Source: a virus
Taxonomy: Duplodnaviria > Caudoviricetes
Length of the DNA stretch: 64,000 nt
Strand: one strand, 5' to 3'
IMG/VR virus record: IMGVR_UViG_3300032241_001154
Span: 192-64,191 of that record
Shown: positions 4,143 to 64,000 of the stretch, in pieces
How positions within the stretch are numbered: position 1 is the first letter of the stretch
Layout: each line of letters begins with the position of its first letter
Notes under the pieces: generated by a model
What the model saw: only the letters and a program-made list of their open reading frames with translations
Database searches by the model: none
Told to the model about the DNA's origin: nothing
Translations under genes and position numbers: made by a program

Positions 4143-4538
4143 TCACTGCCCCTGAGTTGGGTAATGAACCTCGCCCGTTTGTGCGTATTCCGTGCGCATC
4201 TGGTCGGTCATCGCCTTTGCTCGCACCATCTGTGCCGCCGTTTCTGCACGCTGCTGATTCACCTTGACACGGGCATCAAGTTCGTCCGCTTTGCTGCCGC
4301 CGTTGGCCTTTTCCAAATCTCTGGCGGCGGTGAAGTGCTTGACTGCCTCTTCGTGGAGTTCCTTGGCCTGCTGCCAGCGCCCGTTATGGAAACGGTACAC
4401 GCCCATGCGCTCGGCCTTTTCACCTGCGTTGACGTGTTCGGCTACCCCCTTGGAGTATTGGTTGCCGTGGAAGATGTGACCGAGTAGGTCGCCCTTTGTG
4501 AGCGGATACAACAACCCGTCGGTGGTGAAATCAGTCAT
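4143..4538 (-). CDS. hypothetical helical protein with KGDxxGHxFxGNQ tag
   Basis: KGDLLGHIFHGNQY near the N-terminus, shared with proteins at 58-64 kb. Confidence 0.7.
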   Translation of the reverse strand: MTDFTTDGLLYPLTKGDLLGHIFHGNQYSKGVAEHVNAGEKAERMGVYRFHNGRWQQAKELHEEAVKHFTAARDLEKANGGSKADELDARVKVNQQRAETAAQMVRAKAMTDQMRTEYAQTGEVHYPTQGQ

Positions 4539-29100: not shown

Positions 29101-29390
29101 GAGTTCGAGATGGTGAAATAGATGGACGTGCCATCGTTGGGGTTGCCTACACCGGAGACATTGGAACTGCGATTGCCGACGTTTGGCTGTTGAAGGGTCG
29201 TGCTGGTGGTGAAAAACTGGTACAAGTCTTGCGCTTGACCGTAGTAGGTGTTGCCAGAAAGGTCGGGATACGTCGCTACCGAGAAGTACGTTACGTCGTC
29301 TACGGCATCGGCGTGGTCGGCTGAGTTGACCACGTTCCAGTTACCCTGCGAAGCAACCGTAGATGTAGGGCGTAACGTGAGAACTTTCAT
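20112..29390 (-). CDS. giant virion/tail protein (3092 aa) built of repeated beta modules
   Basis: Uninterrupted 9.3-kb ORF after the tape measure; more than 10 copies of [LI]xxGxxVxGxG[IL]PxxTx[IV]xS[IV]. Confidence 0.75.
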   Translation of the reverse strand: MKVLTLRPTSTVASQGNWNVVNSADHADAVDDVTYFSVATYPDLSGNTYYGQAQDLYQFFTTSTTLQQPNVGNRSSNVSGVGNPNDGTSIYFTISNSVFNGSTATFTYTNPVGQTIDQYAYVNITFPSTPTSYTAYNLTNALVASASSGTTNTFTVNSTLSATTISVTATAAQPYALTGGDFFLYVNDITRFRSGQIVAILEGLQEGQTPYSPNATSTDAYYSEWLDFTATGLIPNVPYKQSVDPIDFPTSSLMIPQGYQNISTVMSPNVQFYKPPANKYMGQFLSAAQSTAYVLGQAPTPYAVGTGSASPWYVATSGDNQALSNLASILPDATAQYYQSGTTPPTVLSISIGYFSTAINVSSTANLAVGQTITVATKPQTTLTPASMGWNAGKIISISNGWIVTDLRTQTQRQTVIAGSGNTTPLTLNPSTFVMQLPNAGFSGVVTNGNTVIQGVSATQGIQAGMVIVDSTNPSNISSTTYVASVNTTSGQITMSNAAAGTSSEPDSVSYSASLGGGNYIATTNTTLGLNQAVGNTPSGFTNALVTTFFSGTGCIVNQISATLLSGATFSNSATYSVASNPQIAIVTALNDGGTVASLPYLNPPPTGWTHLTGTGLTSPAYIIGADPTGYGSSLQRIQVNQNPSSYTASASWTSTVNFNITCSVAYTALQTATITVNTVTIGSTAYTVNSSGTFTVGATAYNISNLIKVNAPVIAGTVVPAGRNVSAVVSNTLQLSVGSTTTTGTSAANSTITITVSTGRTIEVTKAGTSQDNILVSGATVSCTYLPAGTTFSSSTQLNSGPYEMLISQPSNTINSWSTTSAIVSGGFIGTIYSNTLTGVSASSPLASGDSILVYSGATLLGNTSIASVSGSTATLSAALTSGGYQTFGTSVTGSASFDVDELYAVGSALAFNNGGATASWSSNATTISLSSTAGVYTGMEVQGSGVPFGAQVSNISGTTVALGYPSLVTGDNYNQAGGTVGNWQAGTNSTLSVALGTGFNTSNSLLLTRINTTVGYGDAYLPMSSITNFKVQPNQTYVVGIDILANSTAYGKVYQLDVRDQNNSRLNTLQMTMNTSAGVWQFFEMSFTPPVGTTTLGIFISDDPQSSPVSGAAVNINNIFLVLAATTSNTQISNGYAPAITTGTGTSGSTPLSITSAQYNFATANGYQSSYTTDGFLVTGSNSYYTGDQADGSFLSGMAIQGNGLPAGTVVSQAFLQDEFVSGKPITINATTGSTAYTLNVSSVVTSNGFTSTVLQNLCVGQVVSGTGISPNSVITGVDTVNKYITLSQAPDPSVSSFVLTTQLFTAQTFALTATYTVSGSTYYFTPSSNQLAGFMLGMIVTSTYWGSTAIIINISGGNIYLSNDINDGNGNSSSFQVSVTNGFVSLSNASAINTTQPDTYTVSYNIPQANTGIFGATIDSTTTRLNTDSGNKFDETFFTAPYLSIDPFNNPNHGQFLIMPVNPSSIKSNPVANALTVASHSPNASTTVEGVGVYANVTQSVVFQGTYNPSGVAISVGSQSGAFPSSPTGWTLWGPRSTTAGSHGAFFPYTVDQIVALGTTFTASATSTSSTTLTSVTNISSLCVGAIVVAAGIPANTFISSINVSASTLTLSANPTSTFSGETISIPATTLHVTTNLPTPANSPAQMVFSAPVQVGDINGLSAGQYISGDIIPYSSTYGGLSGGRGVSGPFVYGINQAAQTTAYLGDVAYGTSTILNISSTANTAAGLSGTNGLLVGQQVSYTGFPTGTVIISVDSATQVTVSNTATATVLQDTIDFEYYNITLCEWVNPGSVTGGTPYTGYSGMYPISGTQSNSLVVAGTLAAGVSNVPASQSGGNTYTLYFDTVANLEPSPSYSWTGNANGGYSGITGVSASATPYINVGDAVAIPSQSQQSFSYSTTQLGYNICFVSAIVAAGSNYNVYLIDNQSNPVVLPIGVNGATFTNYTPNYVFYQSRLVVLEVDSYSNSAIVWAVDSENFLAGAFTSYPNGDSQTAILPVENTVTIYSAYTSPALDATGIGNAGVVMMSNNTSFNHAAGTLVGSYDVGDRYFGTDTVGDQEVLTPTTIGSLFGTTAYATATTNQNYIVVSPLNNTSTLINGVYYDQYGNIASQGISPTTGTTITNVSTVAGNYYMTLPSIASPNISVGWSVRGNGIPTGTVVTFIDGGSIYLSNPISVSATSASYIFTPQVWGVMVVGEGDTQETVVFNGTYNFMSGSATGNTISPISIVLAAGQKFQHNHFAGEPVVVPNIYTLDGFQNQHAAGAMISAGAENPITSQGQQNLLADNTSGAQANSFDTTISLSPNWLTSGDNDNPSLATTLAAPASVSATTLTISSNDLFPTSGYNNVINNGIFSPPEIGRVAGLISSGTNIVPFLPNGSSVPTSSLFFVQIGYDVVQVVNVAVDATGTISPTTYYLNLSATTSANYVDGTPITLKMLDTTTTYNSLTVPHSYLNRSFSGSASVGSNVISSIYASSATQPVSAVSSGVSYTTTAGATTFNLASSAGQPYVGMSVYGDTVIQPNTIVTAVSGSSGAWVVSLSKPLTGAIASTSTVWFAYAVSGTNIPPLAYINSASGTFTSGSGSVTLVYASGQPAYPTVTSTPQVTLNTDASLYASGQYVSTLYISPAPCYLPSGSTMYLKYGLYTQIITTAAAINAGDTSVSVSPFIPVFNYTAASVTSGAITNFLNGTNVAASISYGLINELSTDQTIVLGSGTTPQELVVTQPEPFFADTISVQPFIPLYNYDNTMIASGLFTVTTTVANNVINLATYTFNGYLTTGSNVISSVSSIAGLYTGEGLSGTGIPLNSYIVSMTASASGTFITMSQNASATTANGTINAAPQVGQRLVGTSVTGMFTANITSASATMTGLSTTANLVVGTQVSGAGLPYDAVIVSISGSSATLNLNASASATGVTVSFTTTPFPNPVFVSSVSGSAVTLTSPAAATFSGTSLQVNPTTLTAPIELVVGNDTLSEIVYPYTIPVRQANGTYQMQIASPLNNPYDAGIDVSYYAQPTAVAGDVRWKPDTQTIQKYDGTKWSDAEVSSVQVSVALQGSEMGGDKHSFALTDLTTGDVAPADTYQNAVNPASSS

Positions 29391-42275: not shown

Positions 42276-45200
42276 TTAGTTGAGGGCGTAATAAATCAAG
42301 TTGCTGGAACCCAACATAGTGTACGTCGAACCAATGGTCGCAGGGCTACTGCTACCAGTCCACGTCGAGGCGATGATTGGTGTGACGGTGGTGCTGTTCG
42401 GTGGCGTGTATGTGTTAGAGGCGACGCTGGGTGGCGTAGTCCCCGTGATGCAAACACCGATGTGGTAAATGCCCGATGTTCCCACGGTGTAGGTAGTTGA
42501 GGAACCAGCGGCAATCGTGGCGATGGGCCAAGTGAAATACGTTGATGCCGCCATCGAAGTAAGGCCCTGCGCCGCCGTCGCCGCCACGAGGGTAGCGGTG
42601 GTTCCGGCGAAAGAAAAGATGGCACCCCAGTTACCAGTCAACGATGCGCCAGCAGTCGCATTCGTGGCGAAGGTGATTTTGTTGATGATTTGCCCTGCGT
42701 ACAGGTACACGGCGGTAGTGCGGAAAACACCTGATGAAAGCGTAAGTGAGGACGTAACCGCACCACGGTACAGTGTTTCAGCAACGCTGGTTCCGACAGA
42801 AGAAGCATACGCAAGAGCCAAGTCTTGTGAATAACCAAGGATTGGAGCCTGCGCAGAGCCACCGGCACCGATGGAAATGAGCGTCTGTGGAGTAACAGTT
42901 GTGTTTCCTGCCAAGTACCCCAGTGACGTGTTCGAGGCGCCGTAGACGAGTGCGCCAGTGGTGGAAGCCGTTGAGATTCCCGTGCCACCACTGCTCATGG
43001 GGACGACACCCCTTGAGGTGAAAAATCGATAGACCGGAATGGCGGTTGTGCCGAGCGTGCCGCTGGATGAGATGCCCATCTGCCACGACGTAGAGCCGTA
43101 GGCCGTACCTTGCTGAACCTGAATGAGTGAGGTAGACAACTTGTTGGCAGTGTCAACGTCGTTGTCTCGGCAAAAGATTGTGGGTACGGTAGCCGTTCCC
43201 ATGGTTCCTGTGGCTGGGGTGGTGATGGTGCTTACGCCCGTCACCGTCAAAGTCGTAGAAGTGGCGGTAGCGATGAGCCATGTGCCGTTGTAGCCCGTGG
43301 TAGTCGCCCCACTCACGGTGATGTACTGACCAGCCGTGAAAGTCATGCCCGAACCCGTAAAGGTTATGGTTCCGGCAGACCACGACATTGCAGTGAAAAG
43401 AGTGCTCGTCGTAGTTCCTGCTTGCGTGACCAGCCATACGCCGTTCTGCGTTGTGGTGTTTTGGAATGGGAATAGCCAGCGGTCACCAACTAGGGTTCCG
43501 CCACTGGCAGGGTATCCGTCCGATGCAAACGTTCCGCCTACGCCGATAAAAACGTCAACAGCAAGTGGAGCGTCATTGACGAGGTTGCCCTGTTGCGCTG
43601 TTCCAAAAACGGTGGCGGTGCCTAAGGAAGAGGCGGAGTAGACGGTGAACTGAGTGGCGGATGCGGTGGCAATGACATACGTTCCGTTGTATGCCGTTGG
43701 GGTCATCCCAGTAACAGTTATGTTTTGCCCAACAGTCGGCGTGATGCCAGTCGTTGTGTAGGTGAACGTGATTGTGGGGGATGAGTACGAGGCAGCCGTG
43801 ATGGTCAGCGTCTGACCAACCACATAGGTTCCTGCAAGGGACTGCTGCGCCGCTGCGTTGACGGCTTGGTGAATGGGGAACTCCACCCATTCTGGGCCAC
43901 CGTTAGCGATGTTGCCGTAGGACATGAGCAGGTAACCAGCACCACCAGTTGCGCCGCCACCGTTGGATGACGTGTCCGTGAGGGTTCCTGATGCTGAACC
44001 AAAGACAACCGCACCAGCGGCAGCCGTCGGAATCTGCCCGAAGGCGGCAGCGTCGGTTGAAGCCGTACCGTTGGCGATGTTCGTAATCTTTTGACCACTC
44101 ATGGACAGAACGCCGTTGATGGTCGTAGCGCCGGTGGCACTAATCGTCATTGCATCCGTAGCGCCGCTGTTCACCACGAAGTGGATTGGCTTGGCACCGT
44201 AGGTACCGATGGCGAGGTCTGTCGAGCCGGAAGCAAGGTAGACGTTTCCTGCGCCGTTGAACGCCCCCGTACCAGTGAAGCCTGACGAGTTGATACCGAT
44301 TTCACCGAAGTTGGCGGTGGCGGAACCTTGGTCGTTGGAGATGTTGAAGTTTGCCGAAGCCGTCGTGCCGGAGTTGGTGTTCTGAAGAACCACTTGGTTG
44401 TAGTTGTTGACGTTGGAAACAATGGCGGCATTGATGTTCAAGTCCGTGTATGACAGCGTTTGCAAGCCGACCTGAAGAGGTGAAACCGAAGCCGCAACCG
44501 AAGTTGAGGCGATGTTCGTGATGAACTCGTTGGGCGTGTACAGGGTTCCGGTAAGGGTTCCACCAGTGAGCGGAAGGGCGTTCAGTGCGCCGCTTACGCC
44601 TTGGTTTCCTTGGTACCCCTGATTGCCCTGATTGCCTTGAAAACCTTGGTTGCCGGTACTGCCGGTAGCGCCTTGATAGCCTTGATTTCCTTGGTTGCCT
44701 TGACTACCAGTCGTGCCGGTCGCACCCTGCGAACCAGTGGAGCCTTGATTACCTTGATTACCCTGCGCACCAGTAACCGAGGCACCTTGATTGCCTTGGA
44801 ATCCCTGCGAACCCTGCGAACCCTGCGAACCCTGAGAACCCTGAGTGCCTTGAGAGCCGGTTACGCCTTGATTGCCCTGATTACCTTGGTTTCCCTGACT
44901 TCCCTGTGCGCCAGTCGTTCCCTGATTGCCCTGCGTTCCTTGGTTGCCTTGTGTTCCCGTTGAGCCTTGATTGCCTTGATTACCCTGACTTCCCTGTGTT
45001 CCGGTGATTCCATCAATGGCAAATGTCCACGAGGTGTACGGGCCACCTGAACCGCCCGTAGTGTCCACGTTGACCGTAATCGAGGTGTTCGCCACAAGCG
45101 CCGTAATGACACCAGCCATGAAGTCGGTTGGCGTGGTGGTGTAAATGACACGCACTCGTTGTCCAACGGCGTAAGCACCAGTATTGGAAGTGTTCCACGT

Positions 45201-48200
45201 CAGCGAGCCGGTGGTGATTGACTGCGAAGTCGTAGACGTGACTGTGTAGCCGTTGCCTTGAAAGCCTTGGCTCCCTTGAAATCCTTGATTACCCTGCGAG
45301 CCTTGATTACCTTGGTTCCCCTGATTTCCCTGTGTTCCGGTAGAACCTGTCGAACCCTGACTACCCGTAGACCCTTGGTTGCCCTGAAACCCTTGTGCAC
45401 CTTGTGCGCCCGTACTTCCTTGCGCACCAATCTGCCCTTGGAAGCCCTGCGAACCCTGCGCTCCCGTAGCGCCAGTGGAGCCTTGCGCTCCAGTAGCGCC
45501 TTGAACACCCTGATACCCCTGATACCCCTGCGAACCTTGACTGCCGGTGGCCCCTTGACTGCCTTGAGCGCCAGTAGAGCCTTGTGAGCCTGTTGCGCCA
45601 GTAGACCCCTGAGCGCCAGTAGACCCCTGAGAACCCGTTGAACCTTGGTTCCCTTGGAACCCTTGGAACCCTTGATTGCCTTGGTTTCCTTGTGAGCCGG
45701 TGTTACCCTGATTACCCTGAAAACCTTGATACCCCTGTGTTCCTTGGGCACCGACGATGCCGTCCAAGTTCACCGTCCACGTCGTGAACGTTCCTGAGCC
45801 GCCAATGGTCGTCACGTTCACCGTCATAGAGCCTGTGGCGGCGGTGTATGCGGTGATTGTTCCAATCATGTAGTCGGCTGGGATACCCGTGTTGTAGATG
45901 CGCACGGTCTGACCGACGGTGTATGCGAGGTAGGTGCCGACGGTGAGGGTTTGGCTGCCCGTAGCGATGGTCAGCGAGGTGGAACTCGTGGTTGCGTATG
46001 AAGCGCCTTGGTTTCCCTGATTCCCCTGAAATCCCTGCGTTCCTTGGTTCCCCTGATTACCTTGGAACCCCTGAAATCCTTGGTTTCCTTGATTGCCTTG
46101 GGAGCCGGTAGTTCCTTGGTAGCCCTGATTGCCTTGGCTACCCTGCGAGCCGGTGGAGCCTTGCGCACCAGTTGCACCAGTTGTGCCCTGAGCACCAGTA
46201 GTGCCCTGCGAGCCGGTGGAGCCTTGGTTGCCCTGAAATCCTTGGTTACCTTGATAGCCCTGACTACCCTGTGCACCTGTTGTTCCCTGTGCGCCAGTTG
46301 AGCCTTGGTTGCCCTGTGAACCTTGTGCGCCTGTTGAACCCGTCGCCCCTTGTGCGCCTGTTGTCCCCTGAAAGCCCTGCGTCCCTTGAAATCCCTGTGT
46401 ACCTTGATAGCCTTGGTTTCCCTGCGCCCCTTGGTATGTCACTTGCTGAGCAGTGAAAATGACGCTTGGGGTGGCTGGGACGGTGGGGCCGGTCTGGGAG
46501 CCAGTGGCGGCGATGGAGATAGTTGTGTTCGACGGTGCCCACGCCAACTGAACGTAGTCGTTGGCATTGACGTTGATGACGTAGTTGACGGCGGCAATCA
46601 GCGCACCAGAGCCACCGTGCGAAGTCCCAGGCACGTTATACACCGAGTTGCTGTCAATGACATCCGTACCGTTTTGACGAAGCCAAACATCCACGTTGTC
46701 AGAGTTGCTGTCAGAGTTAGCAAACTGAATCGAGTATTGGATGTTGTAAGTTCCAGCGTGGGCGAACGTGACTTGGTTTCCACTGGCGATGGTAATGCCG
46801 TAGTTGGCGCTCACCGTGTTGATGTTTACGACGTTGGAAACCGTTGTGGATGAGGCCGTCTGGGTCGTCGTGTCGTATGCCGAGATGTAGTTGGCGATTA
46901 CACCACCGGCACCCTGCACGCCTTGATACCCTTGTGCGCCCTGACCAGAAACCTGCGTCCAGTTGATGTTGTCGGTGCCGATAAGGATTACACCACCAGT
47001 ACCAGTACCAGTCGAAATCATCTCGTAGGTCTTACCAGCGTTGCTTGTTCCGGCGATGGTGAGCGTGTAGTCGCCAGCGGCAACCTCGCCAGCGGTGGAA
47101 TCGTTGTAGTCGGTGGCACGGGTGAGTGTCCACGGCGTTGATACTGAGCCGGTTGCCGTTACGGTGTAGATACCGTTGTACTTGGCGTTGGTGTTTGCGG
47201 TAACGAGAACACGTTGGTTGGCGGTCAGGGTCACGCCGTCAATCACCAAAGCACCGTTTGCAGAAGCGGTCAGTTTTGCGCCGATGCCGTAACCGCCACT
47301 AGCGTCAATCGTGCCAGCCGTGTAGGTGGAAGAGTTCGTCGTTCCGGCGGTGTCGGCAACCTGAACGGATGAGTGGGCGTTGAGTGCTGAAGGCGCTCCC
47401 TGCACGCCTTGATTTCCTTGAAAGCCTTGATTTCCTTGGAATCCTTGCGTACCCTGCGTACCTTGAAACCCTTGAACGCCTTGCGTACCCTGATTTCCTT
47501 GGTTACCCTGAGAACCAGTCGAGCCGGTTGAACCCTGATTGCCCTGAGAACCCTGTACACCTTGCGTACCTTGGAATCCCTGACTGCCCTGAACACCTTG
47601 GCTGCCGGTTACTCCTTGGTAACCTTGGTTTCCTTGGCTACCAGTCGCCCCCGTCGAACCTTGCGAGCCAGTCGAACCTTGACTACCCGTTGCTCCTTGG
47701 TACCCTTGCGCTCCCTGAGCACCCGTAGAACCTTGGAACCCTTGATTTCCCTGAAAGCCTTGTGCACCAGTCGAGCCTTGTGCGCCCGTCGAACCAGTTG
47801 CACCCTGAGCACCAGTGTTACCCTGATTTCCCTGAAAGCCCTGATTTCCCTGTGTTCCGGTAGAGCCAGTCGAACCTTGGAAACCCTGATTACCTTGATT
47901 TCCCTGTGAGCCTGTTGCCCCAGTGTTACCCTGATTTCCCTGCGACCCTTGGAACCCCTGAGCGCCTTGCGCTCCGGTGGAACCTTGAGCACCTGTAGCG
48001 CCCGTAGAGCCTTGCGAACCCGTACTTCCCTGACTTCCTGTTGCCCCTTGGTTGCCCTGTGTGCCTTGGAACCCTTGGTTGCCCTGACTGCCCGTAGCGC
48101 CTTGGCTACCTTGGCTGCCCTGACTACCTTGTGCGCCCAAAACAATGGGGAGCCAACTTCCAATGGACAAAGGCGTGGACGTGGTGATACCCGTAGCCGA

Positions 48201-48386
48201 CGCAACCACGAACTGCGTTGAGTTGGTGACGCTCAGAATGGTTGTGTTTATGCTTGCCGATGCGTTTTCAACAGACATACCGGCGCTTAGTCCAGTCGTG
48301 CTACTGATGGTGATGGTCGTTCCCGATACCGCCGATGGAGTGAACGGCGACCCTGACACTGGTGAAAAGTAGTTGAGGATTGACAT
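42276..48386 (-). CDS. collagen-like fibre protein (2036 aa)
   Basis: Four long Gly-X-Y tracts ([15 protein letters not shown]) separated by globular domains. Confidence 0.85.
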
Positions 48387-53556: not shown

Positions 53557-54543
53557 CTAGATAATCGAGTTCCAGAAGAAGCCGAGGTCGGCGGCAACAA
53601 CCTTGTCGTCGAAGGCGATTTCACCTTCAACACGGTCAGCCTTCAACTCTTCCATGCGGAAGCGTGAAACACCAACCGTGGTGCCGAGGCCACCCGAAAC
53701 GCCAGTCCACATGAACGTGTAACCAGCCGAAGGGGTCATCAGACCAGGGTTAGGAGCCGAGTAGCACAACAGAGCGTTGTTGTTGGCGGTGAAGTTGTAC
53801 GAGCCAGTCAAGCCTTCGTCAGCGTTGTTGACGACTGCCTTGGCGACGAGCACACGGTCAAGACCGAAGAGTTGAGCAATCAAGTCCTCGGTGATGATGG
53901 CACCAGCCTGCGTGTACTTGTAGCGGTCAACCAGCGTGGGGTGAGCCTTCAACTTCTGAAACACGGGGTACGAGAGCACGAGCGTGTTGGGTTCGTAACC
54001 AGTGCTCTGAAGCACCTGATACTTGGCCCACTCGATGTCCACGATGGGCAGACCGTTGGTGTAGTCAGACCACTTGATGGTGGTCGTCGTACCAGAGGTA
54101 CCTGCACCAGCGGTCACACCCACAGCGTCGGTGCCCCACACGCCACCCTGAAAGAAGTCCTGCGCCCACTGCACTTCACGGCGCAGCAAGAGACGCTGGG
54201 TGACGAACTGCGTCGCTTCCATGTCGGGGTTGAGGGGGTTGTCGGCGTTAGCACGGGTCTGGTCGCCAATGTCCTTGTGGAAGGCGAACACGTCGGCCTG
54301 ATAGGTGTCCGTGGTGAGGCCGTAACCTGAACCAGCGGAAGCCGTACCGTCGGCACGACGCTGAGCCTCGTCACGGAACCAGTCGTCCTTGGTGTACTTG
54401 AAGTAGAGGTTCGACTTCTTGTCCACTGGAACGACAGGGAAAACCTTGTCCGCAATGAAGTTGTTGGTGTTCTGCAAGTACGCAACCGAGATGTTCGTCA
54501 AGATTGCGTCAATGTGAACGTTGTTTACTGATGGCTGTGGCAT
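53557..54543 (-). CDS. major capsid protein
   Basis: VHIDAILTNISVAY...FIADKVFPVVPV N-terminus; strong codon bias; follows scaffold and cement genes. Confidence 0.9.
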   Translation of the reverse strand: MPQPSVNNVHIDAILTNISVAYLQNTNNFIADKVFPVVPVDKKSNLYFKYTKDDWFRDEAQRRADGTASAGSGYGLTTDTYQADVFAFHKDIGDQTRANADNPLNPDMEATQFVTQRLLLRREVQWAQDFFQGGVWGTDAVGVTAGAGTSGTTTTIKWSDYTNGLPIVDIEWAKYQVLQSTGYEPNTLVLSYPVFQKLKAHPTLVDRYKYTQAGAIITEDLIAQLFGLDRVLVAKAVVNNADEGLTGSYNFTANNNALLCYSAPNPGLMTPSAGYTFMWTGVSGGLGTTVGVSRFRMEELKADRVEGEIAFDDKVVAADLGFFWNSII

Positions 54544-54561: not shown

Positions 54562-55299
54562 CTAGATAGCACGCACGGCGGCGGCAGCCGACAGAGCGAG
54601 GGTGATAACGTCACCAGCAGCCGAGGCTGGGGTGAGCGCAGTACCGACGACAAACGGAATCGTCGTTGACGTGGCGTTCGTAATCGACAGGTAGAACGTG
54701 GTCGAAACCGCACGACCTGAACTGTCAACCGTAACGGGAGCGCCAGCGGTAACAGCAGCGCCAGCAATCACCTTCGTGATGCCCGAAATCGTGATTTCGG
54801 CCTCAGAACTGCCCTCAACACCAGAGTTGGCGTTCAACTTGGTGATGGGCTGGTTCTGAAGAACACCAACGGGACGGTCAGAAGCAGACGTGACGATGGT
54901 GGCAACAGGGGCGTTCTGGTAGGGCTGCGACGAAGGGGTCACGTTGGCGGTGATGGTAGCCGAGGTCAGCGCCAGAACCGAAAGGTTCACGGCGGTGATG
55001 TTGGTACCACTGTAGGTAAGGCCCGTGATGAAGGCACCAGCAGGAATCTGCGAGGTACCAGCAGCAGCGGTGACGGGAGCGCCAAGGACGATTCCAGCAC
55101 TCGACGCAACAGTGATGCCAGTAATCTGGCTGCTGTTGGTGGTCGTGGTACCAGTGAAAGCGGCGGACGACAAGCCTGCAACCTTCACGAACTTGAACTG
55201 TGGCGAGGACGACACGATTCCGTTGGTGATGGTTGAGTTCAGGGTGTTGTCAGCCGTCATCGAAATCTTGACGGCGTAGGGATTCTGCTCGAAAGCCAT
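54562..55299 (-). CDS. capsid cement/decoration protein (DUF2190-like) with inserted module
   Basis: QFKFVK...GVLQN.P...G..KV.AG..V.AG..V..D..GRA...G.AL..A.AAGD.I. Confidence 0.75.
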   Translation of the reverse strand: MAFEQNPYAVKISMTADNTLNSTITNGIVSSSPQFKFVKVAGLSSAAFTGTTTTNSSQITGITVASSAGIVLGAPVTAAAGTSQIPAGAFITGLTYSGTNITAVNLSVLALTSATITANVTPSSQPYQNAPVATIVTSASDRPVGVLQNQPITKLNANSGVEGSSEAEITISGITKVIAGAAVTAGAPVTVDSSGRAVSTTFYLSITNATSTTIPFVVGTALTPASAAGDVITLALSAAAAVRAI

Positions 55300-55302
55300 G
55301 GC

Positions 55303-56118
55303 TTAGCGACCTTTCTCGTTGAGGTAAGACGTGTACAAGTCGGGGTTGCTCTGGGCGACAGACATCAGCGCAGCCTCGAACGAAGGAGCGGTACCGGCAG
55401 AAACAGCAGCCTTGGCAAGCGATTCCATCTTCGAGTAAGCGTCGTCGGTCATGACGGGAGCGTCCGAACCAACCTCAGTGAAAACAACGTTGGTTTCCAC
55501 GAGGGCGTTAGCACTGTCGAGGGCCTTGACGATTTCGCCAGCGAGAACGCCGTCGGATTCGGAAAGGCGACGAAGGGCAGGGCCAACAATCGTAGGGTCA
55601 ATGTTGAGGTGCGACCAGCCAGCAGCCTTGATGACAGCAGCCTCATCAGCACGAGCCTCACGCTCGGCAATAAGGGCAGCCTCAGAAGCAGCAGCCTTGC
55701 GAAGGGCAGCCTCGGCGTTAGCCGAAGCCTCGTCCAGCATCTTGCGAATAGCCTGTGGCATCGCCTTGATGATGTCAGCCTCGCTCGCAGCCTCAGGAAC
55801 GATGACAACTTCGGTCATCTCTGAAACTTCAGACATAGTTTTCTCCTTGAAAACTTTGAGGGTTTCCAAAACAGCGTTCGCTGCCTTGGCGGTGTCCAGT
55901 AAAATCTCGTCTGCTTCGATTTCCTCAGCAGGCAACTCGGTTACCTCTTCAACAGGGGCAACCTCGTCCGAGACTTCAGTGGGACGGAGTTCGTCAAGCA
56001 CCGCTTCAGCATCCGCAGGGCTTGCCGACTTCATTACTACCCAACCATCGTGCAGGTGCGCAGGGTGGTCAACACCCGACGTTTCCTTGATGCTCAGTTT
56101 CACGAGTTTGCGAGCCAT
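55303..56118 (-). CDS. capsid scaffold-like protein
   Basis: L..L.I.E.S.VD.PA N-terminus, acidic coiled coil, NPDLY..Y C-terminus; upstream of cement and capsid. Confidence 0.7.
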   Translation of the reverse strand: MARKLVKLSIKETSGVDHPAHLHDGWVVMKSASPADAEAVLDELRPTEVSDEVAPVEEVTELPAEEIEADEILLDTAKAANAVLETLKVFKEKTMSEVSEMTEVVIVPEAASEADIIKAMPQAIRKMLDEASANAEAALRKAAASEAALIAEREARADEAAVIKAAGWSHLNIDPTIVGPALRRLSESDGVLAGEIVKALDSANALVETNVVFTEVGSDAPVMTDDAYSKMESLAKAAVSAGTAPSFEAALMSVAQSNPDLYTSYLNEKGR

Positions 56119-58083: not shown

Positions 58084-58563
58084 TTATTCGGCGTGAGTGT
58101 TGGCAAGCATGCCAGTGGCGGTATCAGCATTGAAGGAAGCGATTGCCGCCCTCTGAGCCAAAGCCTGCGCCTCAGGGTCTTTCTCGTATGACGCTTGTCC
58201 GCCCAATGGGGCGATGTGGTCGAGAATGGCCTCGTGAGCCTGCGCTGCATCGAGGTGGGCCTGAATCGCACGGGTCGCACGCATGCGGTCACCGTTAGAC
58301 ATTTCACTGCTGTGCTTCAGAACCATGTTCTTGATTCCTTCGGCGGTTGAGCGGTGAATCTGGGCGAGGGGCTTGGTCAGGCCATTGGAGATGCCAATGC
58401 CACGAGCGAAGTTCTGGGCGTTGGTGGAAAGGAAGTGCGAACTGCTCACGGCCTTTTCCATGTCTGCGCCCGACTGCCACTGGTTGCCGTGGAACGGGTG
58501 CCCTGCTACATCACCCTTAGCCAACTGTACCCACGCAATGATTTCGTTGTTCAGATTATCCAT
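58084..58563 (-). CDS. His/Ala-rich helical protein with GHxFxGNQ tag
   Basis: AKGDVAGHPFHGNQW. Confidence 0.7.
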   Translation of the reverse strand: MDNLNNEIIAWVQLAKGDVAGHPFHGNQWQSGADMEKAVSSSHFLSTNAQNFARGIGISNGLTKPLAQIHRSTAEGIKNMVLKHSSEMSNGDRMRATRAIQAHLDAAQAHEAILDHIAPLGGQASYEKDPEAQALAQRAAIASFNADTATGMLANTHAE

Positions 58564-59099
58564 TAGATACCTTCCGAGAAACTTCCAACGCCAGCGGCTT
58601 GCTCGGCGCTACGGACGTTGTTTTCAGCAGCATCAACCTTATCTTGTGCGTCACTCATACGTTGTCCCGTGGCGTGGGCTGGGTCGGCGTTGGTGATTGT
58701 GTCACGGTTCGCCTCAAAGTTCTTGGTGTCACGGGCTGCACTTGCCAAACCAGCGTGGGCGTTGGCTGCGCTTTCGTGGGCGGTGGCAACATCACGGAGT
58801 TTTCCAGCCATTGAGCCAGTCGCCTTGTCTGCCATTGCGTGATACATCTGGGCTTGCTGATTGTGCGAAGCGCTTTGCTGCGTTGAGGTGGCTTCAGCGT
58901 TGCGACCTGCGTTCATTATGTCGTTTGCACCCCAGCGGCTTGGGTCTACACGACGGGCTGGTTGTGCTGAAGCGCCAGTCGAGATGCCGCCAGTGTGCTG
59001 GTTCCCATTGAAGGCGTGACCGTCGGTCTCGTACTTCAAGATTTCACTGGCGGTTTTCCAAACTGGAACCAGTGCGTCGGTGGAGAAAGGGTTTGACAT
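58563..59099 (-). CDS. His/Ala-rich helical protein with GHxFxGNQ tag
   Basis: LKYETDGHAFNGNQH. Confidence 0.7.
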   Translation of the reverse strand: MSNPFSTDALVPVWKTASEILKYETDGHAFNGNQHTGGISTGASAQPARRVDPSRWGANDIMNAGRNAEATSTQQSASHNQQAQMYHAMADKATGSMAGKLRDVATAHESAANAHAGLASAARDTKNFEANRDTITNADPAHATGQRMSDAQDKVDAAENNVRSAEQAAGVGSFSEGI

Positions 59100-59109
59100 T
59101 ATGTTTTTT

Positions 59110-59523
59110 TTACTTTGGCAGGTCAGCGTTGCCGGAGTGATTTATTGCAGCAAGCGTCTGGACTACTGCCTTAGAAGCGTCTCCAACTACGTTCCTATTG
59201 CCGTAATCCGCAGCCTTAGTCCACGTCTTTTCAGCAGCAAGGTGTGCTTTGGCGAGGGCGTTCAGGTTGTCTGCAACGTCCTTGTAGCCAGTTTCGTTTC
59301 GTGCTGCCATTGCTTTGGCTGCTTCACCACGGTGGTACTCCGCCATGCCTAAAGCGTCTGCACGGTTTGGGGCACCGCCAATGCGGGCACTAGCAATCTT
59401 GCCCGCTCGCATAGCAATGGTGTATTGGTTGCCGTTGAAGATGTGTCCAGCCAACTCGTACTTTGTGACGGGGTAGCGAGAAAGTGATTTGAGTAGTTCG
59501 TCGGGGTGGAAGCCAGATGACAC
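59110..59523 (-). CDS. Ala-rich helical protein with GHxFxGNQ tag
   Basis: TKYELAGHIFNGNQY. Confidence 0.7.
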   Translation of the reverse strand: MSSGFHPDELLKSLSRYPVTKYELAGHIFNGNQYTIAMRAGKIASARIGGAPNRADALGMAEYHRGEAAKAMAARNETGYKDVADNLNALAKAHLAAEKTWTKAADYGNRNVVGDASKAVVQTLAAINHSGNADLPK

Positions 59524-59596
59524 GAGGTTCTCCTTGTCGGGATTTCTACATCAGATACTACGCCACGATTTCCTAAACCGATGTTCCAAAACCCCA

Positions 59597-59625
59597 TTGA
59601 CGGTGGTGATAAACGGTGCTAGACT
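59597..59625 (+). promoter_or_regulatory. plus-strand promoter with no credible downstream ORF
   Basis: TTGACG-N17-TAGACT. Confidence 0.55.
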
Positions 59626-59631
59626 TCGCCC

Positions 59632-59705
59632 GACTGACTTGGGGGCGCTGGACACAACGCCAAGTACATTCACACCGACCCCTGCCGAAAGGCGGGGGAT
59701 TCGGT
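59632..59705 (+). ncRNA. candidate ~75-nt small RNA
   Basis: Promoter, then hairpin ACTTGG..GCG/CGC-CAAGT, then CCCCTGCC-GAAA-GGCGGGGG hairpin. Confidence 0.4.
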
Positions 59706-60203
59706 TTATTGGGGCCTGTTTGCGCCCCAAAGTGAGGTGAAATGGCCTCGTTCTGCTTCGCCAATGTGCTCCAAGAGCAGGTATCCATCGAGATGGTCTG
59801 TCTCGTGCTGAAAGATGCGAGCGAGCAATCCTTCCCCGTCAATCCTGTAGGCGTTCCCGTCAAGGTCGAGGGCCGTCAAGGTCGCTTTGTACGAGCGGCT
59901 GATTTGCCACCCGAACTTGGGCACCGACAAGCATCCTTCGGGCGTGACCTCGATGTCAAGGGGGTCAGTGAAAACCTCTGGGTTGATGGCGACGTGAGCG
60001 CCCGTGCCGTCGCCGCTGTCCCAAACGAACATGCGGTGCGAGTAGCCGATTTGGTTGGCGGCAAGCCCAACACCGAGGTGAAAGTACATGGCCTCAACCA
60101 TTTCGGCGGCAATCATCTTGATGTTGTCTGTGATTTCACTGACTGGGGTCGTGGGGGCTTCCAAAATGGGGTCGCCGTAGAAGCGCATGGCTGGGATGTT
60201 CAC
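59706..60203 (-). CDS. def: peptide deformylase
   Basis: GVGLAANQIG, EGCLS and QHETDHLDG motifs; start reassigned to GTG 60203. Confidence 0.93.
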   Translation of the reverse strand: MNIPAMRFYGDPILEAPTTPVSEITDNIKMIAAEMVEAMYFHLGVGLAANQIGYSHRMFVWDSGDGTGAHVAINPEVFTDPLDIEVTPEGCLSVPKFGWQISRSYKATLTALDLDGNAYRIDGEGLLARIFQHETDHLDGYLLLEHIGEAERGHFTSLWGANRPQ

Positions 60204-60466
60204 CGTGCGCCCATCTCTCTCTTTGCCTCTTCGAGCAGTTCGGCGGTGAAGTCCTCTGGCGACAGTTCGGTCTTGGCGTGGGCCATCAACTTGCCGCAGG
60301 CGATGCTGAACGCCCATGTGTAAAGGCTGAGTTCCTCGTCGAGGTGCGACAACTCCTTGCGGTAGCCGAGAACCATCTGGTCGTGCTTGGCAATCAGCCC
60401 TGCCATCCCAGTGCGCATGGTAGCCAACTTCTCTTCGAGGTCGGCAATCTGCTTTGACTTACGCAC
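60200..60466 (-). CDS. coiled-coil hypothetical protein
   Basis: 88 aa, overlapping neighbours. Confidence 0.6.
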   Translation of the reverse strand: MRKSKQIADLEEKLATMRTGMAGLIAKHDQMVLGYRKELSHLDEELSLYTWAFSIACGKLMAHAKTELSPEDFTAELLEEAKREMGAR

Positions 60467-60611
60467 GGTACTTCTCTGGCACTGGGCCTGTGTACGAAGC
60501 GCCGTTCAAGTCTGAGGTGAACGGGAAGCGTGCCGAGCACTGCTGGCACACGACGTAGGTCTTAGCGCCTGCGTTCATCAAAATCCACTTGTGGAAGGCG
60601 CAACTAGCCAT
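60459..60611 (-). CDS. 50-aa Zn-finger-like peptide
   Basis: Manual translation MASCAFHKW...VCQQC...; fills the gap. Confidence 0.55.
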   Translation of the reverse strand: MASCAFHKWILMNAGAKTYVVCQQCSARFPFTSDLNGASYTGPVPEKYRA

Positions 60612-60777
60612 GCTGAACCGTCATGACGTACTTGCTGGCGTTGGCGGTAAACGCCTGCGCCTCTTCCTTCGTAGCGAAGTCGGGCGATGTCATGACGGTG
60701 TAGTAGTAGCCATCACCACCTTGGTAGGTCTTGAAGAAGAACCCGTTGCCATTCCAAATCTCGACAACTTTACTCAT
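60604..60777 (-). CDS. 57-aa hypothetical protein
   Basis: MSKVVEIWNG..., TGATG overlap with upstream stop. Confidence 0.5.
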   Translation of the reverse strand: MSKVVEIWNGNGFFFKTYQGGDGYYYTVMTSPDFATKEEAQAFTANASKYVMTVQHG

Positions 60778-60980
60778 CAAATAAACGCCTTCATGTCTTG
60801 CGCTTCTGCTTCCCATTGCTCTGGTGAACCGAGACGAACGACGTGCAAGCACACGTCCGTGCCGTTCTCCATGAGTTCTGATTCGGTGTCGGTCAACTCC
60901 ACGCCTGCGTGGGTTTCGCACACCTGCTGGGTGCAGAACTTGTTGTCAATGCCGTACTGAAGCCACTCATCAAAGGTCAT
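60777..60980 (-). CDS. 67-aa Cys/His hypothetical protein
   Basis: MTFDEWLQYGI...C...CETH.G...E.E..E.G.D.C.HVVRL. Confidence 0.6.
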   Translation of the reverse strand: MTFDEWLQYGIDNKFCTQQVCETHAGVELTDTESELMENGTDVCLHVVRLGSPEQWEAEAQDMKAFI

Positions 60981-60990
60981 GGCGTTCACC

Positions 60991-61524
60991 TTAGCAGCCG
61001 TCGGAGTTCCATTCTGGGTGGATTCCGTTATTGCGGTTCCAATAGAAGGCGGCGACACGGAACTGGTCTGCGATGCTCGCATCTTGGGCATGCTGGGCGG
61101 TGATGCCAAGAGCGTTAGCGCCGAACTGCCACGTTGGGGGCATGAACTGAAAGATGCCTGCCGCACCCTCGGCGTTCACCTCACGGTAGTTGTGGAAGTC
61201 CGTGGGGGTCGAGCGAGATTCACGCCACATGACGCAGGTGAAGGCCGCTCGGCTCGCTGGTGGGAGCAAGTCCATGTAGCCGCCAGATGGGGCTGTGTGG
61301 CTCGCTACGGGCTTTGGCTTGGCTTTGTGGTGAACCACAGGCTTGGCGACGTGCACATGCGCTAATGGGCGACTGTTGCCGTACCAGAAGATGGTAATCA
61401 TCTTGGGCGTGGTCGTCCGAGCGGCGAGGTGATGGGCCACCTTGGGCGCAGCGTGGAACATTCCTACGACAAGGGAGACTACGACTGTCAGTGCGAGGAA
61501 GCCACCTCGCACCGTGCCTAGCAC
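60991..61524 (-). CDS. exported Rpf/lysozyme-like transglycosylase (start uncertain)
   Basis: N-terminal hydrophobic signal, basic linker, C..WRES...N...GAAGIFQFM..TW...A....Q...A......G..W...C. Confidence 0.8.
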   Translation of the reverse strand: MLGTVRGGFLALTVVVSLVVGMFHAAPKVAHHLAARTTTPKMITIFWYGNSRPLAHVHVAKPVVHHKAKPKPVASHTAPSGGYMDLLPPASRAAFTCVMWRESRSTPTDFHNYREVNAEGAAGIFQFMPPTWQFGANALGITAQHAQDASIADQFRVAAFYWNRNNGIHPEWNSDGC

Positions 61525-61718
61525 GAGCCTGCCTTGGTAGAGGGATAGAACGGTACCGCTATTGGGTTGCTGGACACAACGCACTCCTTTGGTTGCCCAT
61601 TGGGGGATGCACCAGTTTACCCGAATGTGACGGATAAGGCAAGTACTAAGCGATTTCCTTGCAAATAAAGGGTTTTGCCCCACCGTCGAGGTGATAGAAA
61701 AAAAACATGCAAAAAGAC

Positions 61719-61748
61719 TTGACAGATGTCACACGGGGGTGCCATACT
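61719..61748 (+). promoter_or_regulatory. promoter, TGTCAC-spacer class
   Basis: A-tract, then TTGACA-gatgtcacacgggggtgc-CATACT; closely similar to the promoter at 10367. Confidence 0.65.
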
Positions 61749-61753
61749 GGTTA

Positions 61754-62050
61754 GGTAAGAAAGCAGCAGTGCCGAGGTGCGCTTGTAAAGTCCCCACGAG
61801 AAAGTGGTCGAGCAAGCCGAAGGCCAGCCTGTGAGCCGTACCACCTGTTTGCGACACGGGCGCACTCAGTAAGGCCGTAGGAAGTTCGGAGCGAACTACG
61901 GCGAAGGTGGGTACGGAAGTTGGGAGCGGAAGTGGTACCCCTAGGAAACGGGAAATCCACAAAGTAGCCCAGCGCAGATGCAGTACCCCAGTAAGGAAAA
62001 CCAAGGCTACCGAGTTAGAAGTCCCCTCAGCAAAGGCTGGGGGGATTTTC
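61754..62050 (+). ncRNA. candidate ~290-nt highly structured non-coding RNA
   Basis: Lies between a promoter and a terminator, has no credible ORF, and shows many nested helices with purine-rich loops. Confidence 0.6.
62019..62050 (+). terminator. intrinsic (probably bidirectional) terminator
   Basis: AAGTCCCCTCAGC-AAAG-GCTGGGGGGATTTT. Confidence 0.7.
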
Positions 62051-64000
62051 TATTGCTGGGCGACGCTATACGGAATGTTGTTTTTGACGAGCGAATCAAC
62101 CGTCGTCTTGTTTGGGGGTGTGTCAAACTCGACCCGTGCGATGTCTCCCAAGGTGATTCCGCCGTGAATCTGGGCCTCGACGTAGGGCGCACGTCCCGTG
62201 TTGTTGATAGTTGCGTCTGCCGATAGCCCGTGCTTCAGCATGTCAACGATGCTGTGTTCGCCTGCTGGCTTGACCGCTTCTGCCTCAGGGTCACGAGCCG
62301 ACATGGGCTTGGTAGTCCATGGGTTGCCGCCCCTCTGACCGAAGGTGCCTCGGCTGTCGCCCATGGTGACCGTAGAGCGGTCTTTCACGCCGTCCTTCAG
62401 CACGACCTTGGCACCGCCGTAATAGGTGGGGTCGTCCTTTGAGCCTGCGTGGTCAATGTAGCCGTAGATGGGACGCTCGGATGGTGACGCACCTTCCAAT
62501 CCGAAGAGTTTGTTTTCGACTTGGGTTCGATGATTGTTCGGGTCGGAGATTTCACCACCGTGCATGGTGGCAGACGAGCCAGTTTGGTGGGCATTCTTGA
62601 TGGAGCCGCTTGACAAGACTTGCTTCAGAGCAGATGGTTGCATGCGGACGGCTATTTCACCTGACGCTACAAAGTTTTTGATGGCCCTTGCCGATGCTTG
62701 CTGATACTCGGCGTGGCTTCCAGTCCATTGGTTGCCGTTGAATGGGTGTCCTGCCGCCTCGCCTTTGTAGACCTCGTTCAGCACTTGATAGTGGATTTGG
62801 CTTGCCTTGTCGTCGTCGCCTGCCTCGTGCGCCTCTTGCTCTTGGGCGAGCAGTTTGACCGCCTTGTCGCTGAGGTGTTCCCCTTTGGGCTTCTTAGCCT
62901 TCTGTAGGGGGCGTAGGGCGAACCGTGCCCAGATGTCGCCAGCGGCCTTACCAATCGGCTTGGCGGCGACCCCATTGTCCTTTGACCATTGCAACGCTCG
63001 GCTAATCACCTCGGTGGCAGGAGCGTCCACACGGATAATTGGCAACATCTGCGAGGGGTGCTGGAAGTGGATAGCCACGTCCGCAGCCCAGTTGTGGTGA
63101 CCGTCAATGACGTAGTTGTCCTTGGAGACAAGAAGGAACTTGCTCTGGGGGATTTGCCCGTCAGCCTCTTTGTAGAGTTGGGCAGCACGCCCAAGCCCGA
63201 TTTCCTTCTGCGAAGGCTTCAGGGTCGTGGGGTCTACAAACTCTTTGGTTGAGGTGATACCGCTCTTGGCAAGGTCGGAGACAAACTGGTCACGCATTTT
63301 GCTGGGCACTTGGGGCATTTCGCTACGGGAGTAGCCAAGTCCGTCCTGCCCCATTAGGCGTGTTCCGTCTACTCGGAGTTCGGTGATGTCTGCCGTGGCG
63401 ACTTTTGGATTGTCAATCTTGTTCGCCTTGTCCAACAGAACGCCAAGTTCGCTGGACGAGATGACGGGCTTTTCACCTGCTGCCAGTGAGTTGATGACGC
63501 TCTTTGACCATTTCTTGGGGTTCTCCGAGGACGAGTATCCGCCCGTCCACTGATTTCCCTCAAAGGCGTGCCCTTGCTCTGCGCCAGAACCTTGTCCGCC
63601 CTTCACCACTTGGCTACTTCCGCTCGCCTGAAGCAGGGCGTTGGCGTAGTCCTTGGCTTCAGCGTCGGTGCAAGTAGCAATGCCTTGGAAACGACCAATA
63701 AGTTCGGGGGTTGCTGGAACAACGTCCCAATACTTCACAATGGCAAAAGAACTCTTTAGAAAGTTGTCTTTTAGTTCCTGAAGGGTTTGTTCGCCGTTTC
63801 CGTCCACGAACTTGTCGTCGCCCACCTGTAATGCGTAGTGCTGAACAAAGACGGGTGGATAGTCCTTGCCTTCCTCTGGCTTGATTGGGTCGCCAATAGC
63901 GACAGGCTTGCCGTTGGGGTAGATGTTCTGTAGCGCCTTCATCACCACGCCGCAGCCACCAAACAAAGGGTGGTTGTTTGGGTAGGCGAGAAACCCTTGC
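62050..64000 (-). CDS. polyvalent multi-domain protein (partial): papain/transglutaminase-like, ParB/Srx-like and DUF3626-like domains
   Basis: Frame is open to the right edge. GGCG..HY...FVD triad-like; LKPSQ.E...VSKDNYVIDGHH.WAA; RPIYGY...YG...VLK...TVT.GDS...YVEAQIHG; two GHxFxGNQW tags. Confidence 0.7.
   Translation of the reverse strand, partial: QGFLAYPNNHPLFGGCGVVMKALQNIYPNGKPVAIGDPIKPEEGKDYPPVFVQHYALQVGDDKFVDGNGEQTLQELKDNFLKSSFAIVKYWDVVPATPELIGRFQGIATCTDAEAKDYANALLQASGSSQVVKGGQGSGAEQGHAFEGNQWTGGYSSSENPKKWSKSVINSLAAGEKPVISSSELGVLLDKANKIDNPKVATADITELRVDGTRLMGQDGLGYSRSEMPQVPSKMRDQFVSDLAKSGITSTKEFVDPTTLKPSQKEIGLGRAAQLYKEADGQIPQSKFLLVSKDNYVIDGHHNWAADVAIHFQHPSQMLPIIRVDAPATEVISRALQWSKDNGVAAKPIGKAAGDIWARFALRPLQKAKKPKGEHLSDKAVKLLAQEQEAHEAGDDDKASQIHYQVLNEVYKGEAAGHPFNGNQWTGSHAEYQQASARAIKNFVASGEIAVRMQPSALKQVLSSGSIKNAHQTGSSATMHGGEISDPNNHRTQVENKLFGLEGASPSERPIYGYIDHAGSKDDPTYYGGAKVVLKDGVKDRSTVTMGDSRGTFGQRGGNPWTTKPMSARDPEAEAVKPAGEHSIVDMLKHGLSADATINNTGRAPYVEAQIHGGITLGDIARVEFDTPPNKTTVDSLVKNNIPYSVAQQ

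Follow-up and report, generated by a model that had tools for sequence, protein, structure and literature searches.

A near-invariant peptide header opens the modules of polyvalent proteins in uncultured phages and most likely marks cargo of the virus head

Why should five otherwise unrelated phage proteins carry the same short peptide? The question is raised by a stretch of 64,000 nucleotides (hereafter, the window) that makes up nearly all of a linear 64,191-base virus record in IMG/VR (IMGVR_UViG_3300032241_001154; CheckV completeness 51%) and has nearly all of its genes on the minus strand. Four small proteins and one large polyvalent protein encoded in the window share a peptide tag with the core GHxFxGNQ[WYH]. 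The initial annotation had proposed that cleavage after a Lys at the start of this tag would expose an N-terminal address, which sends interchangeable cargo to the head for injection. Our analysis suggests a related but different answer. The tag belongs to a header that most likely marks proteins carried inside the virus head. More specifically, and with a probability of roughly 0.42, the header of such capsid-borne cargo would consist of two parts: a protease site tuned to each phage and an invariant peptide that is kept on the freed module. Judged from sequence, a single near-invariant peptide appears to stand at the start of each module in thousands of proteins from uncultured phages.

A six-frame scan of the window with the pattern GH.F.GNQ[WYH] returned exactly six matches, all of them on the minus strand and within open reading frames (ORFs). 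Once extended to the Lys, the matches reproduce the six copies described initially, both in position and in peptide, and there are no further copies in the window (Table 1). Based on six-frame residue frequencies, 5.7e-5 matches would be expected by chance, and none was found in 200 first-order Markov resamples of the window. The codons of the invariant residues vary among the copies (GGG/GGA/GGT, TTT/TTC, AAT/AAC, CAA/CAG). Therefore, the conservation is at the protein level, as had been noted, and the possibility of a DNA-level repeat was set aside. In the small proteins the tag is preceded by leaders of 14, 15, 21 and 20 residues, three of which start with FTTDGLL, FSTDALV and FHPDELL. In the large protein each tag opens an individual domain, one preceding a ParB-like module and the other a DUF3626 module. 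The sequences behind the tag are indeed unrelated: the best BLASTP match among them has an E-value of only 0.16, and a profile of the 58084-58563 family could be aligned with the other three small proteins only over the leader and the tag (23-35 columns). The sixth copy (63547-63603) represents an insertion sub-variant, KGG-x-GSG-xxx-GH.F.GNQ, which recurs in other phages (L007, L012, L025, L056 and L081).

The tag turned out to be the core of a linear header of about 20 residues, Φ-x-[K/L/F]-G-D-Φ-P-G-H-P-F-[R/H]-G-N-Q-[W/Y/H]-T, followed by a Gly-rich linker. We derived residue frequencies from 193 full contexts, in which positions -7 to -1, +2, +4 and +9 onward were not forced by the search pattern. 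In the N-terminal half, position -7 is occupied by V/I/L (62%), position -5 by K (61%), L (13%), S (8%), F (6%) or A (5%), position -4 by G (93%), position -3 by D (83%) or E (9%) and position -1 by P (42%). Further on, P (53%) or E (21%) is found at position +2, R (49%) or H (43%) at +4, W/Y/H at +8 and T (63%) at +9, while positions +10 to +15 are rich in Gly. The sequence flanking the header shows no conservation. The invariance is even more pronounced among 536 copies found by profile search in 153 proteins: H, N and Q are present in 100%, F, both Gly residues and the G at -4 in about 100%, while no residue other than D or E is found at position -3. The Lys, in contrast, is not a constant feature across phages: 61-65% of the copies have K at position -5, the others having L, A, F, S or M. 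Two tag-bearing ORFs start with M-G-D. The tag does not seem to belong to any described domain. Its profile had no matches in the PDB at E<=10, it falls within no Pfam or NCBIfam family in the proteins of the window and none of 24 Pfam spans contains it. Given the PDB and Pfam span results, we set aside the possibility that the motif is part of a known folded domain with a different role.

The database scan with GHxFxGNQ[WYH] proposed in the initial annotation revealed that the tag is widespread. The back-translated pattern has at least 187 matching stretches in viral contigs, and a profile derived from 145 copies detected 2,442 cluster representatives at E<=1e-3 among 1.84e9 (495 at <=1e-10 and 102 at <=1e-30). 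These proteins reach 3,461 residues in length and contain up to 9 copies of the tag. All ten of the tag-bearing proteins that were looked up come from metagenomic sources only; one of them is named an SPP1 gp7-family head morphogenesis protein. A word-indexed protein search with the leader plus the tag as the query gave only two candidates. Among 50,697 records of cultured phages, short-query tblastn, which is insensitive to divergent copies, detected the tag only in Xanthomonas phage Rb1 (PQ569993). In these searches, the 27-mer of the window produced one weak match, the L058 polyprotein none and a consensus-type 33-mer only Rb1 (E=0.05). The tag is thus likely rare among cultured phages, with the reservation that divergent tags would fall outside the E<=10 limit. 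Prokaryote genomes contributed 6 matches among 185,579 species genomes, every one of them a metagenome-assembled genome. No copy turned up among 72,556 plasmid records at the sensitivity of the search, so that the tag appears to be specific to phages.

Within proteins, the header is located between domains. For 13 of the 24 Pfam spans the nearest upstream tag ends 3-87 residues ahead of the domain, and the median distance from tag to tag is 214 residues; five tandem pairs are only 21-23 residues apart. Many giant polyproteins open with 5-25 residues followed by the tag, which can be as near as 10 residues to the N-terminus. At the other end, at least 55 residues follow the last tag in all but one of the 153 proteins, the exception (15 residues) being a probably truncated protein. 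A Pfam family could be assigned in 29 of 71 tag-bearing ORFs, about 60% of the tagged ORFs having no known domain. Eleven of the 71 ORFs are fusions with carrier domains, namely MuF (6, of which 5 are over the cut-off), portal (2) and XkdF-type protease (3). Two such contigs, L009 and L057, display the order XkdF protease, DUF6496, tag and linker, followed by the same ParB-like cargo type that is present in the window. Cargo domains in the 71 ORFs include ADP-ribosyltransferases, zeta toxin, topoisomerase IB, NUDIX, 2'-5' RNA ligase/Acb1-like, PI3/PI4-like kinase and DUF3626, among others, and 26 large polyproteins add InPase, cytidylyltransferase, Tpt1, pentapeptide repeats and DUF7178. By its domain assignments, this cargo set corresponds to the repertoire of phage-type polyvalent proteins. 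As a separate observation, a second header, D-E-x-x-H-P-R-D-x-x-G-[KRQ]-[FW], occurs at a module boundary in 3 of the 153 GNQ-tagged polyproteins (P0022, P0108 and P0147). Both headers have an H-P ... G ... aromatic pattern and may be interchangeable or distantly related.

Iyer, Burroughs, Anand, de Souza and Aravind (2017; PMC5512222) describe polyvalent proteins as combinations of disparate enzyme domains, which are either joined to MuF, portal or head proteins or encoded next to them and are inferred to be packaged and injected. Their enzyme set, according to the same text, comprises ART-PolyVal, InPase, zeta toxin, 2H/2'-5' ligase, NUDIX, topoisomerase IB and ParB-like domains. The large protein of the window likewise joins unrelated domains (ParB-like and DUF3626), as do its tag-bearing relatives (ADP-ribosyltransferase, InPase, topoisomerase IB and NUDIX), and the tagged ORFs are found both beside head genes and in the fusions with MuF, portal or protease. 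Neither 'GNQ' nor 'GHxF' occurs in the main text of PMC5512222, so that a shared header at module boundaries is not described there. We also found no published description of the tag in the literature on polyvalent proteins, MuF, capsid-targeting sequence, XkdF and phage Rb1. The main text of PMC5512222 proposes zincin metallopeptidases as processing enzymes, whereas the zincin motif HELGH is present in only 15 of the 153 tag-bearing proteins.

The genomic setting also points to the head. At the head end of the window, the tagged ORFs lie 2-8 kb upstream of the genes for the scaffold and capsid proteins. The capsid protein itself shares about 50% identity with its counterparts in Arthrobacter and Microbacterium phages (52% in the case of Arthrobacter phage Ottawa), and seven uncultured tag-bearing contigs encode a capsid protein 80-86% identical to it. 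One of the relatives (G001) is complete, with 121 kb and terminal repeats. There, two genes that are missing from the window, the portal gene (phrog_113) and a 608-residue ORF ending in an XkdF-type protease, are followed by a stretch of about 19 kb in which 11 ORFs bear 18-19 tags and then by the exonuclease, scaffold and capsid genes. Two further relatives (L192 and L193) resemble it and have 12-14 tags each. The 2,070-residue protein of G001 and the large protein of the window have the tags alone in common. All the tagged proteins of the window's clade are stand-alone, and no tag was seen on the portal or protease ORF there. The cargo island of the relatives includes an untagged ferritin/Dps-like ORF (PF00210; 3609-4067 in L192, 3756-4214 in L193 and 98143-98601 in G001), which recalls the ferritin-like cargo of encapsulins. 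The tag of phage Rb1 belongs to a 1,221-residue protein with InPase and DarA_N domains that bears the annotation of an internal head protein; it lies about 390 residues downstream of the DarA_N domain, where it opens another module. In the Rb1 region 51801-64582, the gene for this protein is followed by one annotated as an M12B-like metallopeptidase and then by a giant SNF2-type ATPase gene.

Is the tag linked to a particular type of head? We surveyed head components in 30 tag-bearing contigs of at least 40 kb. An XkdF-type protease was found in 10 of them, phrog_328 in four and an HK97-type S78 protease in two, while ClpP and S49 were detected in none of the 30. MuF was present over the cut-off in 11 contigs, the window-type capsid protein in 12 and a PF05065 capsid in two. 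No head family was common to all 30 contigs. The proposed co-occurrence with the capsid, scaffold and protease type of the window or with MuF was therefore not borne out, the tag being tied to none of these.

In contrast to the invariant core, the variable positions differ from phage to phage. Identity between copies is higher within genomes than between genomes at positions -7, -6, -5, -2, -1, +4 and +10 (none of 500 shuffles reached the observed values), while the codon identity at the invariant residues is 0.53 within and 0.45 between genomes. From these comparisons, the variable header positions look tuned to each phage. Position -5 further co-varies with the head protease. Of the 24 contigs with an XkdF-type protease 23 are K-class at -5, compared with one such contig among the 22 non-K contigs (Fisher p=2.7e-4). 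Repeated on 43 clusters of similar DNA formed from 77 contigs, the test gave 7/19 versus 0/16 (p=0.009). The L-class clade has a different protease, phrog_328. A possible protease site was also noticed outside the header. The scaffold-like protein of the window (55303-56118) has an N-terminal motif of about 30 residues (KLVKLSIKETSGVDHPAHLHDGWVVMK|S) that resembles the end of the XkdF Pfam model, and two further contigs have comparable stretches that weakly match the final 27 positions of the same model. Within V-M-K30-S31 of this protein, K30-S31 is invariant in eight relatives and is a possible candidate for cleavage. The Φ-x-K-[GS] pattern occurs once in the scaffold of the window (VMK30-S31) and in neither the cement nor the capsid protein. 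Both the link between the K-class and XkdF and the scaffold K30-S31 would be compatible with a cut between positions -5 and -4.

These observations can be arranged into a tentative mechanism. The header opens each module of polyvalent proteins; it also opens small stand-alone proteins whose genes neighbour those for portal, head protease, scaffold and capsid. The modules would ride inside the capsid, some as fusions to portal, MuF or head protease and others as free proteins that begin with a short leader. The N-terminal half of the header (Φ-x-K|G-D-Φ-P), tuned in each phage, would be the site at which the head maturation protease cuts, separating the modules and trimming the leaders. The invariant half (G-H-x-F-x-G-N-Q-aromatic) would remain on a flexible tether at the new N-terminus of each module, where it would be read by something common to all these phages, with packaged DNA, the exit path and other tags as the candidates. 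We consider it rather doubtful that the invariant half is a universal address, one that functions across capsid, portal and protease families because it is read not by the surface of a phage protein but by packaged DNA, the tag itself or the exit route. If so, any module with the header, once freed by the local head protease, would stay in the head and be ejected together with the others. The proposed order of events departs from the initial annotation, in which cleavage exposes the tag that addresses cargo to the head. Because the prohead protease acts inside the prohead, the cut cannot provide the first address; cargo must be targeted before it is cut or by means of something else, for instance the leaders or the uncut tag. 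What stands of the idea of interchangeable head-delivered cargo is the modular header and the setting among capsid-internal proteins, as indicated by the carrier fusions, the tagged island of G001 and the annotation of the Rb1 protein; the conserved Lys, the order of addressing and the link to a capsid type do not.

Several results weigh against the two-part header. A protease site does not explain why nine downstream residues are invariant across phages that differ in protease, capsid and MuF status. The association of position -5 with the protease was drawn from related, fragmentary contigs and may reflect shared ancestry, and in the protease/scaffold ORF of the L-class clade the corresponding Φ-x-L-[GS]-[DE] site is absent. 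Some tagged ORFs are far from head genes: in the window, the 4143-4538 ORF is located about 54 kb away from them amid replication-type genes. G030 likewise has, far from the head genes at about 96.9-98.8 kb, a second cluster of small leader-plus-tag ORFs (125-262 residues; L198, L201, L204 and L210). No tag is present in the scanned 24-kb head regions of phages Laroye and Ottawa, the closest cultured relatives by capsid protein. Finally, structure prediction is uninformative either way. The AlphaFold2 (AF2) model of the 58084-58563 protein, based on a five-sequence alignment, leaves the leader and the tag at a predicted local distance difference test score (pLDDT) below 50.

Part of the evidence might be accounted for without any cleavage. 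The uncut tag could be a pure docking peptide that binds the inner capsid, scaffold or portal and thereby loads the cargo, much as encapsulin cargo-loading peptides or the T4 capsid targeting sequence do, a reading we hold to be unlikely, though deserving serious consideration. The shortness and linearity of the motif and its flexible Gly-rich tether would suit such a role, as would the giant polyproteins that open with 5-25 residues and the tag but have no detected carrier domain, the exclusively stand-alone tagged proteins of the window's clade and the tuning of variable positions within each genome; the five tandem pairs of tags suggest avidity. However, the core is found with unrelated capsid families (window-type and PF05065), proteases and portals, leaving no conserved receptor surface evident. 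Moreover, cargo fused to portal, MuF or protease should need no loading tag, and the tracking of protease type by position -5 is left unexplained. Conservation without a conserved receptor would be accounted for if the tags bind each other, possibly via a metal (D, H, N and Q), and free cargo rides on tagged carriers. The concerted tuning within genomes, the presence of tags on both carriers and free cargo and the tandem tags would fit as well, but the absence of a tag from the portal and protease ORFs of the window's clade means that there is no tagged carrier there, and we give such piggy-backing only a slim chance. Alternatively, the reader might be sought in the host, where the invariant half would bind a conserved component or ligand and so localise, activate or time the injected modules; the link to head genes would then merely follow from the cargo being carried in the virion. 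That H, N, Q, F and G are so extremely invariant although the head machinery of the phages is diverse, and that some tagged ORFs are located away from head genes, is in line with a role after injection. Nevertheless, we find it improbable, as none of our results points to a host partner, the tag is very rare in prokaryote genomes and the tuning within genomes argues for a reader on the phage side.

The position of the tag exactly at module boundaries, its invariant H, N and Q flanked by Gly turns, and its presence both with several protease families and in contigs without a detected protease could also indicate a peptide that breaks the chain by itself, through His-assisted Asn cyclisation at G-N|Q or on the ribosome in a 2A-like manner. 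This is very improbable in our view. With 17 residues and no conservation on either side, the motif is small for a fold that processes itself. Such a break would bring little gain to stand-alone proteins with the tag at their extreme N-terminus, and the phage-tuned position -5 is not explained. We know of no precedent in bacteria for a self-acting separator peptide of this kind. It might also be argued that the header is no signal at all and is just a structural cap or linker that spreads by module shuffling, or a junction that favours cassette recombination. Modules do differ between close relatives, as illustrated by G001 and the window, whose large proteins share only the tags, and leaders are swapped on the same cargo. 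Yet codon identity at the invariant residues is hardly higher within genomes than between them, and on the basis of these values the DNA homology is too short for a role in recombination. In addition, near-100% conservation of eight residues in the 536 copies implies strong selection on the peptide, and AF2 does not pack the tag onto the cargo (at low confidence). We therefore see little likelihood in this explanation and retain the two-part header as the working interpretation.

How does the two-part header compare with known head-targeting systems? The T4 prohead protease cuts at an L/I-x-E logo. The tag, with its Φ-x-K-G-D, is unrelated in sequence to this logo, and the protease of the relatives is XkdF-type (PF14550) and not of the T4 gp21 type. 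Since both sequence and protease differ, homology to the T4 capsid targeting sequence was set aside, and T4 serves as an analogy, not as a sign of membership. According to a review (PMC9026906), which gives the cut logo as 'LIE', the T4 internal proteins and Alt, although otherwise unrelated, are loaded into the head through a short N-terminal peptide that they share and that the prohead protease takes off. The four small proteins of the window are similar in having a leader of 14-21 residues plus the tag on interchangeable cargo. However, T4 cargo loses its propeptide, while cargo with the GNQ tag would keep the conserved part, and this tag also occurs internally, in up to nine copies per protein. 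In phage P1, according to PMC12810830, DarA and Hdf are bound to the inner capsid, and the N-terminus of DarA is cut by the prohead protease Pro. These anti-restriction proteins are head-internal and processed by a protease, and the tagged protein of Rb1 contains the DarA_N domain, but the Rb1 tag lies well beyond DarA_N, at the start of another module. Encapsulin cargo-loading peptides are short and conserved, reside on a flexible linker and tether diverse cargo inside an HK97-fold shell; they are C-terminal and are read by one shell family. The GNQ tag is also short and conserved, has Gly-rich positions +10 to +15 and is predicted by AF2 (at low confidence) to be a coil. It differs in being N-terminal to each module, in its consensus and in its association with several capsid protein families.

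Virion-borne effectors, polyvalent proteins among them, are regarded as the phage's first strike against host defences. Only for T4 and P1 is it known, to our knowledge, how modules of such diversity are loaded, separated and delivered. The tag provides a concrete, mutable element for tests of loading and processing and a sequence handle for candidate injected effectors in metagenomes, including the tagged ORFs that lack a known domain. The link between position -5 and the protease family amounts to a prediction on head-protease specificity. If transferable, the tag could be used for packing chosen proteins into phage heads. Should it prove to be a universal address, it would correspond in phages to the loading peptide of encapsulins and could serve generally to load chosen proteins into phage heads.

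The leaders constitute a further variable element. Cargo-island ORFs of the window's clade (including L192, L193 and L195) have leaders of two classes, and some of these ORFs have no adjacent tag. Class I is described by NPF-[ST/HP]-[TP]-[DE]-x-L... and class II by M-[SD]-[DN]-[IL]-[ND]-x-E-[IV]-x-x-W-[VI]. A protein 90% identical to the 58084-58563 product bears a class I leader instead of class II, indicating that the leaders swap independently of the cargo. Because of this swapping, and because some ORFs have a leader without an adjacent tag, the leaders may be the loading signal specific to this clade.

Table 1. Tag copies, tagged proteins and head genes in the window.
Feature	Coordinates	Strand	Details
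Core-pattern matches (GH.F.GNQ[WYH])	4455-4481, 58477-58503, 58995-59021, 59422-59448, 62725-62751, 63547-63573	minus	
Stand-alone tagged protein, 131 aa	4143..4538	minus	class I leader MTDFTTDGLLYPLT (4497-4538), tag KGDLLGHIFHGNQY (4455-4496)
Major capsid protein	53557..54543	minus	phrog_1005
Head scaffolding or cement-like protein	54562..55299	minus	phrog_673 (scaffolding) or Phage_cement_2 (cement-like, just below cut-off)
Scaffold-like protein	55303..56118	minus	phrog_13547
Stand-alone tagged protein, 159 aa	58084..58563	minus	class II leader MDNLNNEIIAWVQLA (58519-58563), tag KGDVAGHPFHGNQW (58477-58518)
Stand-alone tagged protein, 178 aa	58563..59099	minus	class I leader MSNPFSTDALVPVW... 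(59037-59099), tag KYETDGHAFNGNQH (58995-59036)
Stand-alone tagged protein, 137 aa	59110..59523	minus	GTG start; class I leader MSSGFHPDELLKSLSRYPVT (59464-59523), tag KYELAGHIFNGNQY (59422-59463)
Polyvalent protein, at least 649 aa	62050..64000	minus	three modules, two tags between them; frame open to contig end
DUF3626 module, aa 461-637 of the polyvalent protein	62089..62619	minus	PF12294, 32.1 bits vs cut-off 27
Tag copy heading the DUF3626 module	62725..62766	minus	KGEAAGHPFNGNQW
ParB-like module, aa 163-369 of the polyvalent protein	62893..63513	minus	phrog_2859 (1.7e-36), VIDGHHNW motif
Tag copy heading the ParB-like module	63547..63603	minus	insertion sub-variant KGGQGSGAEQGHAFEGNQW

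As to the individual tagged proteins, the cargo of the 4143-4538 product is helical, rich in Ala and Glu and without a known family, and no known family was assigned to the post-tag cargo of the 58563-59099 and 59110-59523 products either. The cargo of the 58084-58563 protein is predicted by AF2 to form a four-helix bundle (pLDDT 72-88). A Foldseek search of this model against the PDB gave no match at E<=1e-3, the best being talin R10 (E=0.086), a generic fold, and the ESM Atlas had no usable match for the protein. For a natural protease-tag-ParB fusion (L009) the mean pLDDT was 45.6, the protease domain being poorly modeled too. The large ORF may be incomplete because it runs past the end of the contig. 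Its second tag is spanned by phrog_8314, a family with no assigned function. The tblastn relatives of its DUF3626 module include gene 2 of mycobacteriophage L5 and part of a mycobacteriophage protein annotated as a capsid maturation protease plus ADP-ribosyltransferase.

Downstream on the minus strand, the gene order is a LexA-like repressor, a Cas4-like exonuclease, the scaffold-like protein, the scaffolding or cement-like protein, the major capsid protein and siphovirus tail genes. A peptide deformylase gene (59706-60317; phrog_2890, 8.8e-27) is located between the small tagged genes and the gene for the large polyvalent protein. Two giant ORFs downstream of the tape-measure gene, 20112-29390 (3,092 residues) and 15234-20060 (1,608 residues), have no PHROG family at E<=1e-3. 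A 2,036-residue ORF between the head and tail genes (42276-48386) matches many collagen-like tail-fibre PHROGs.

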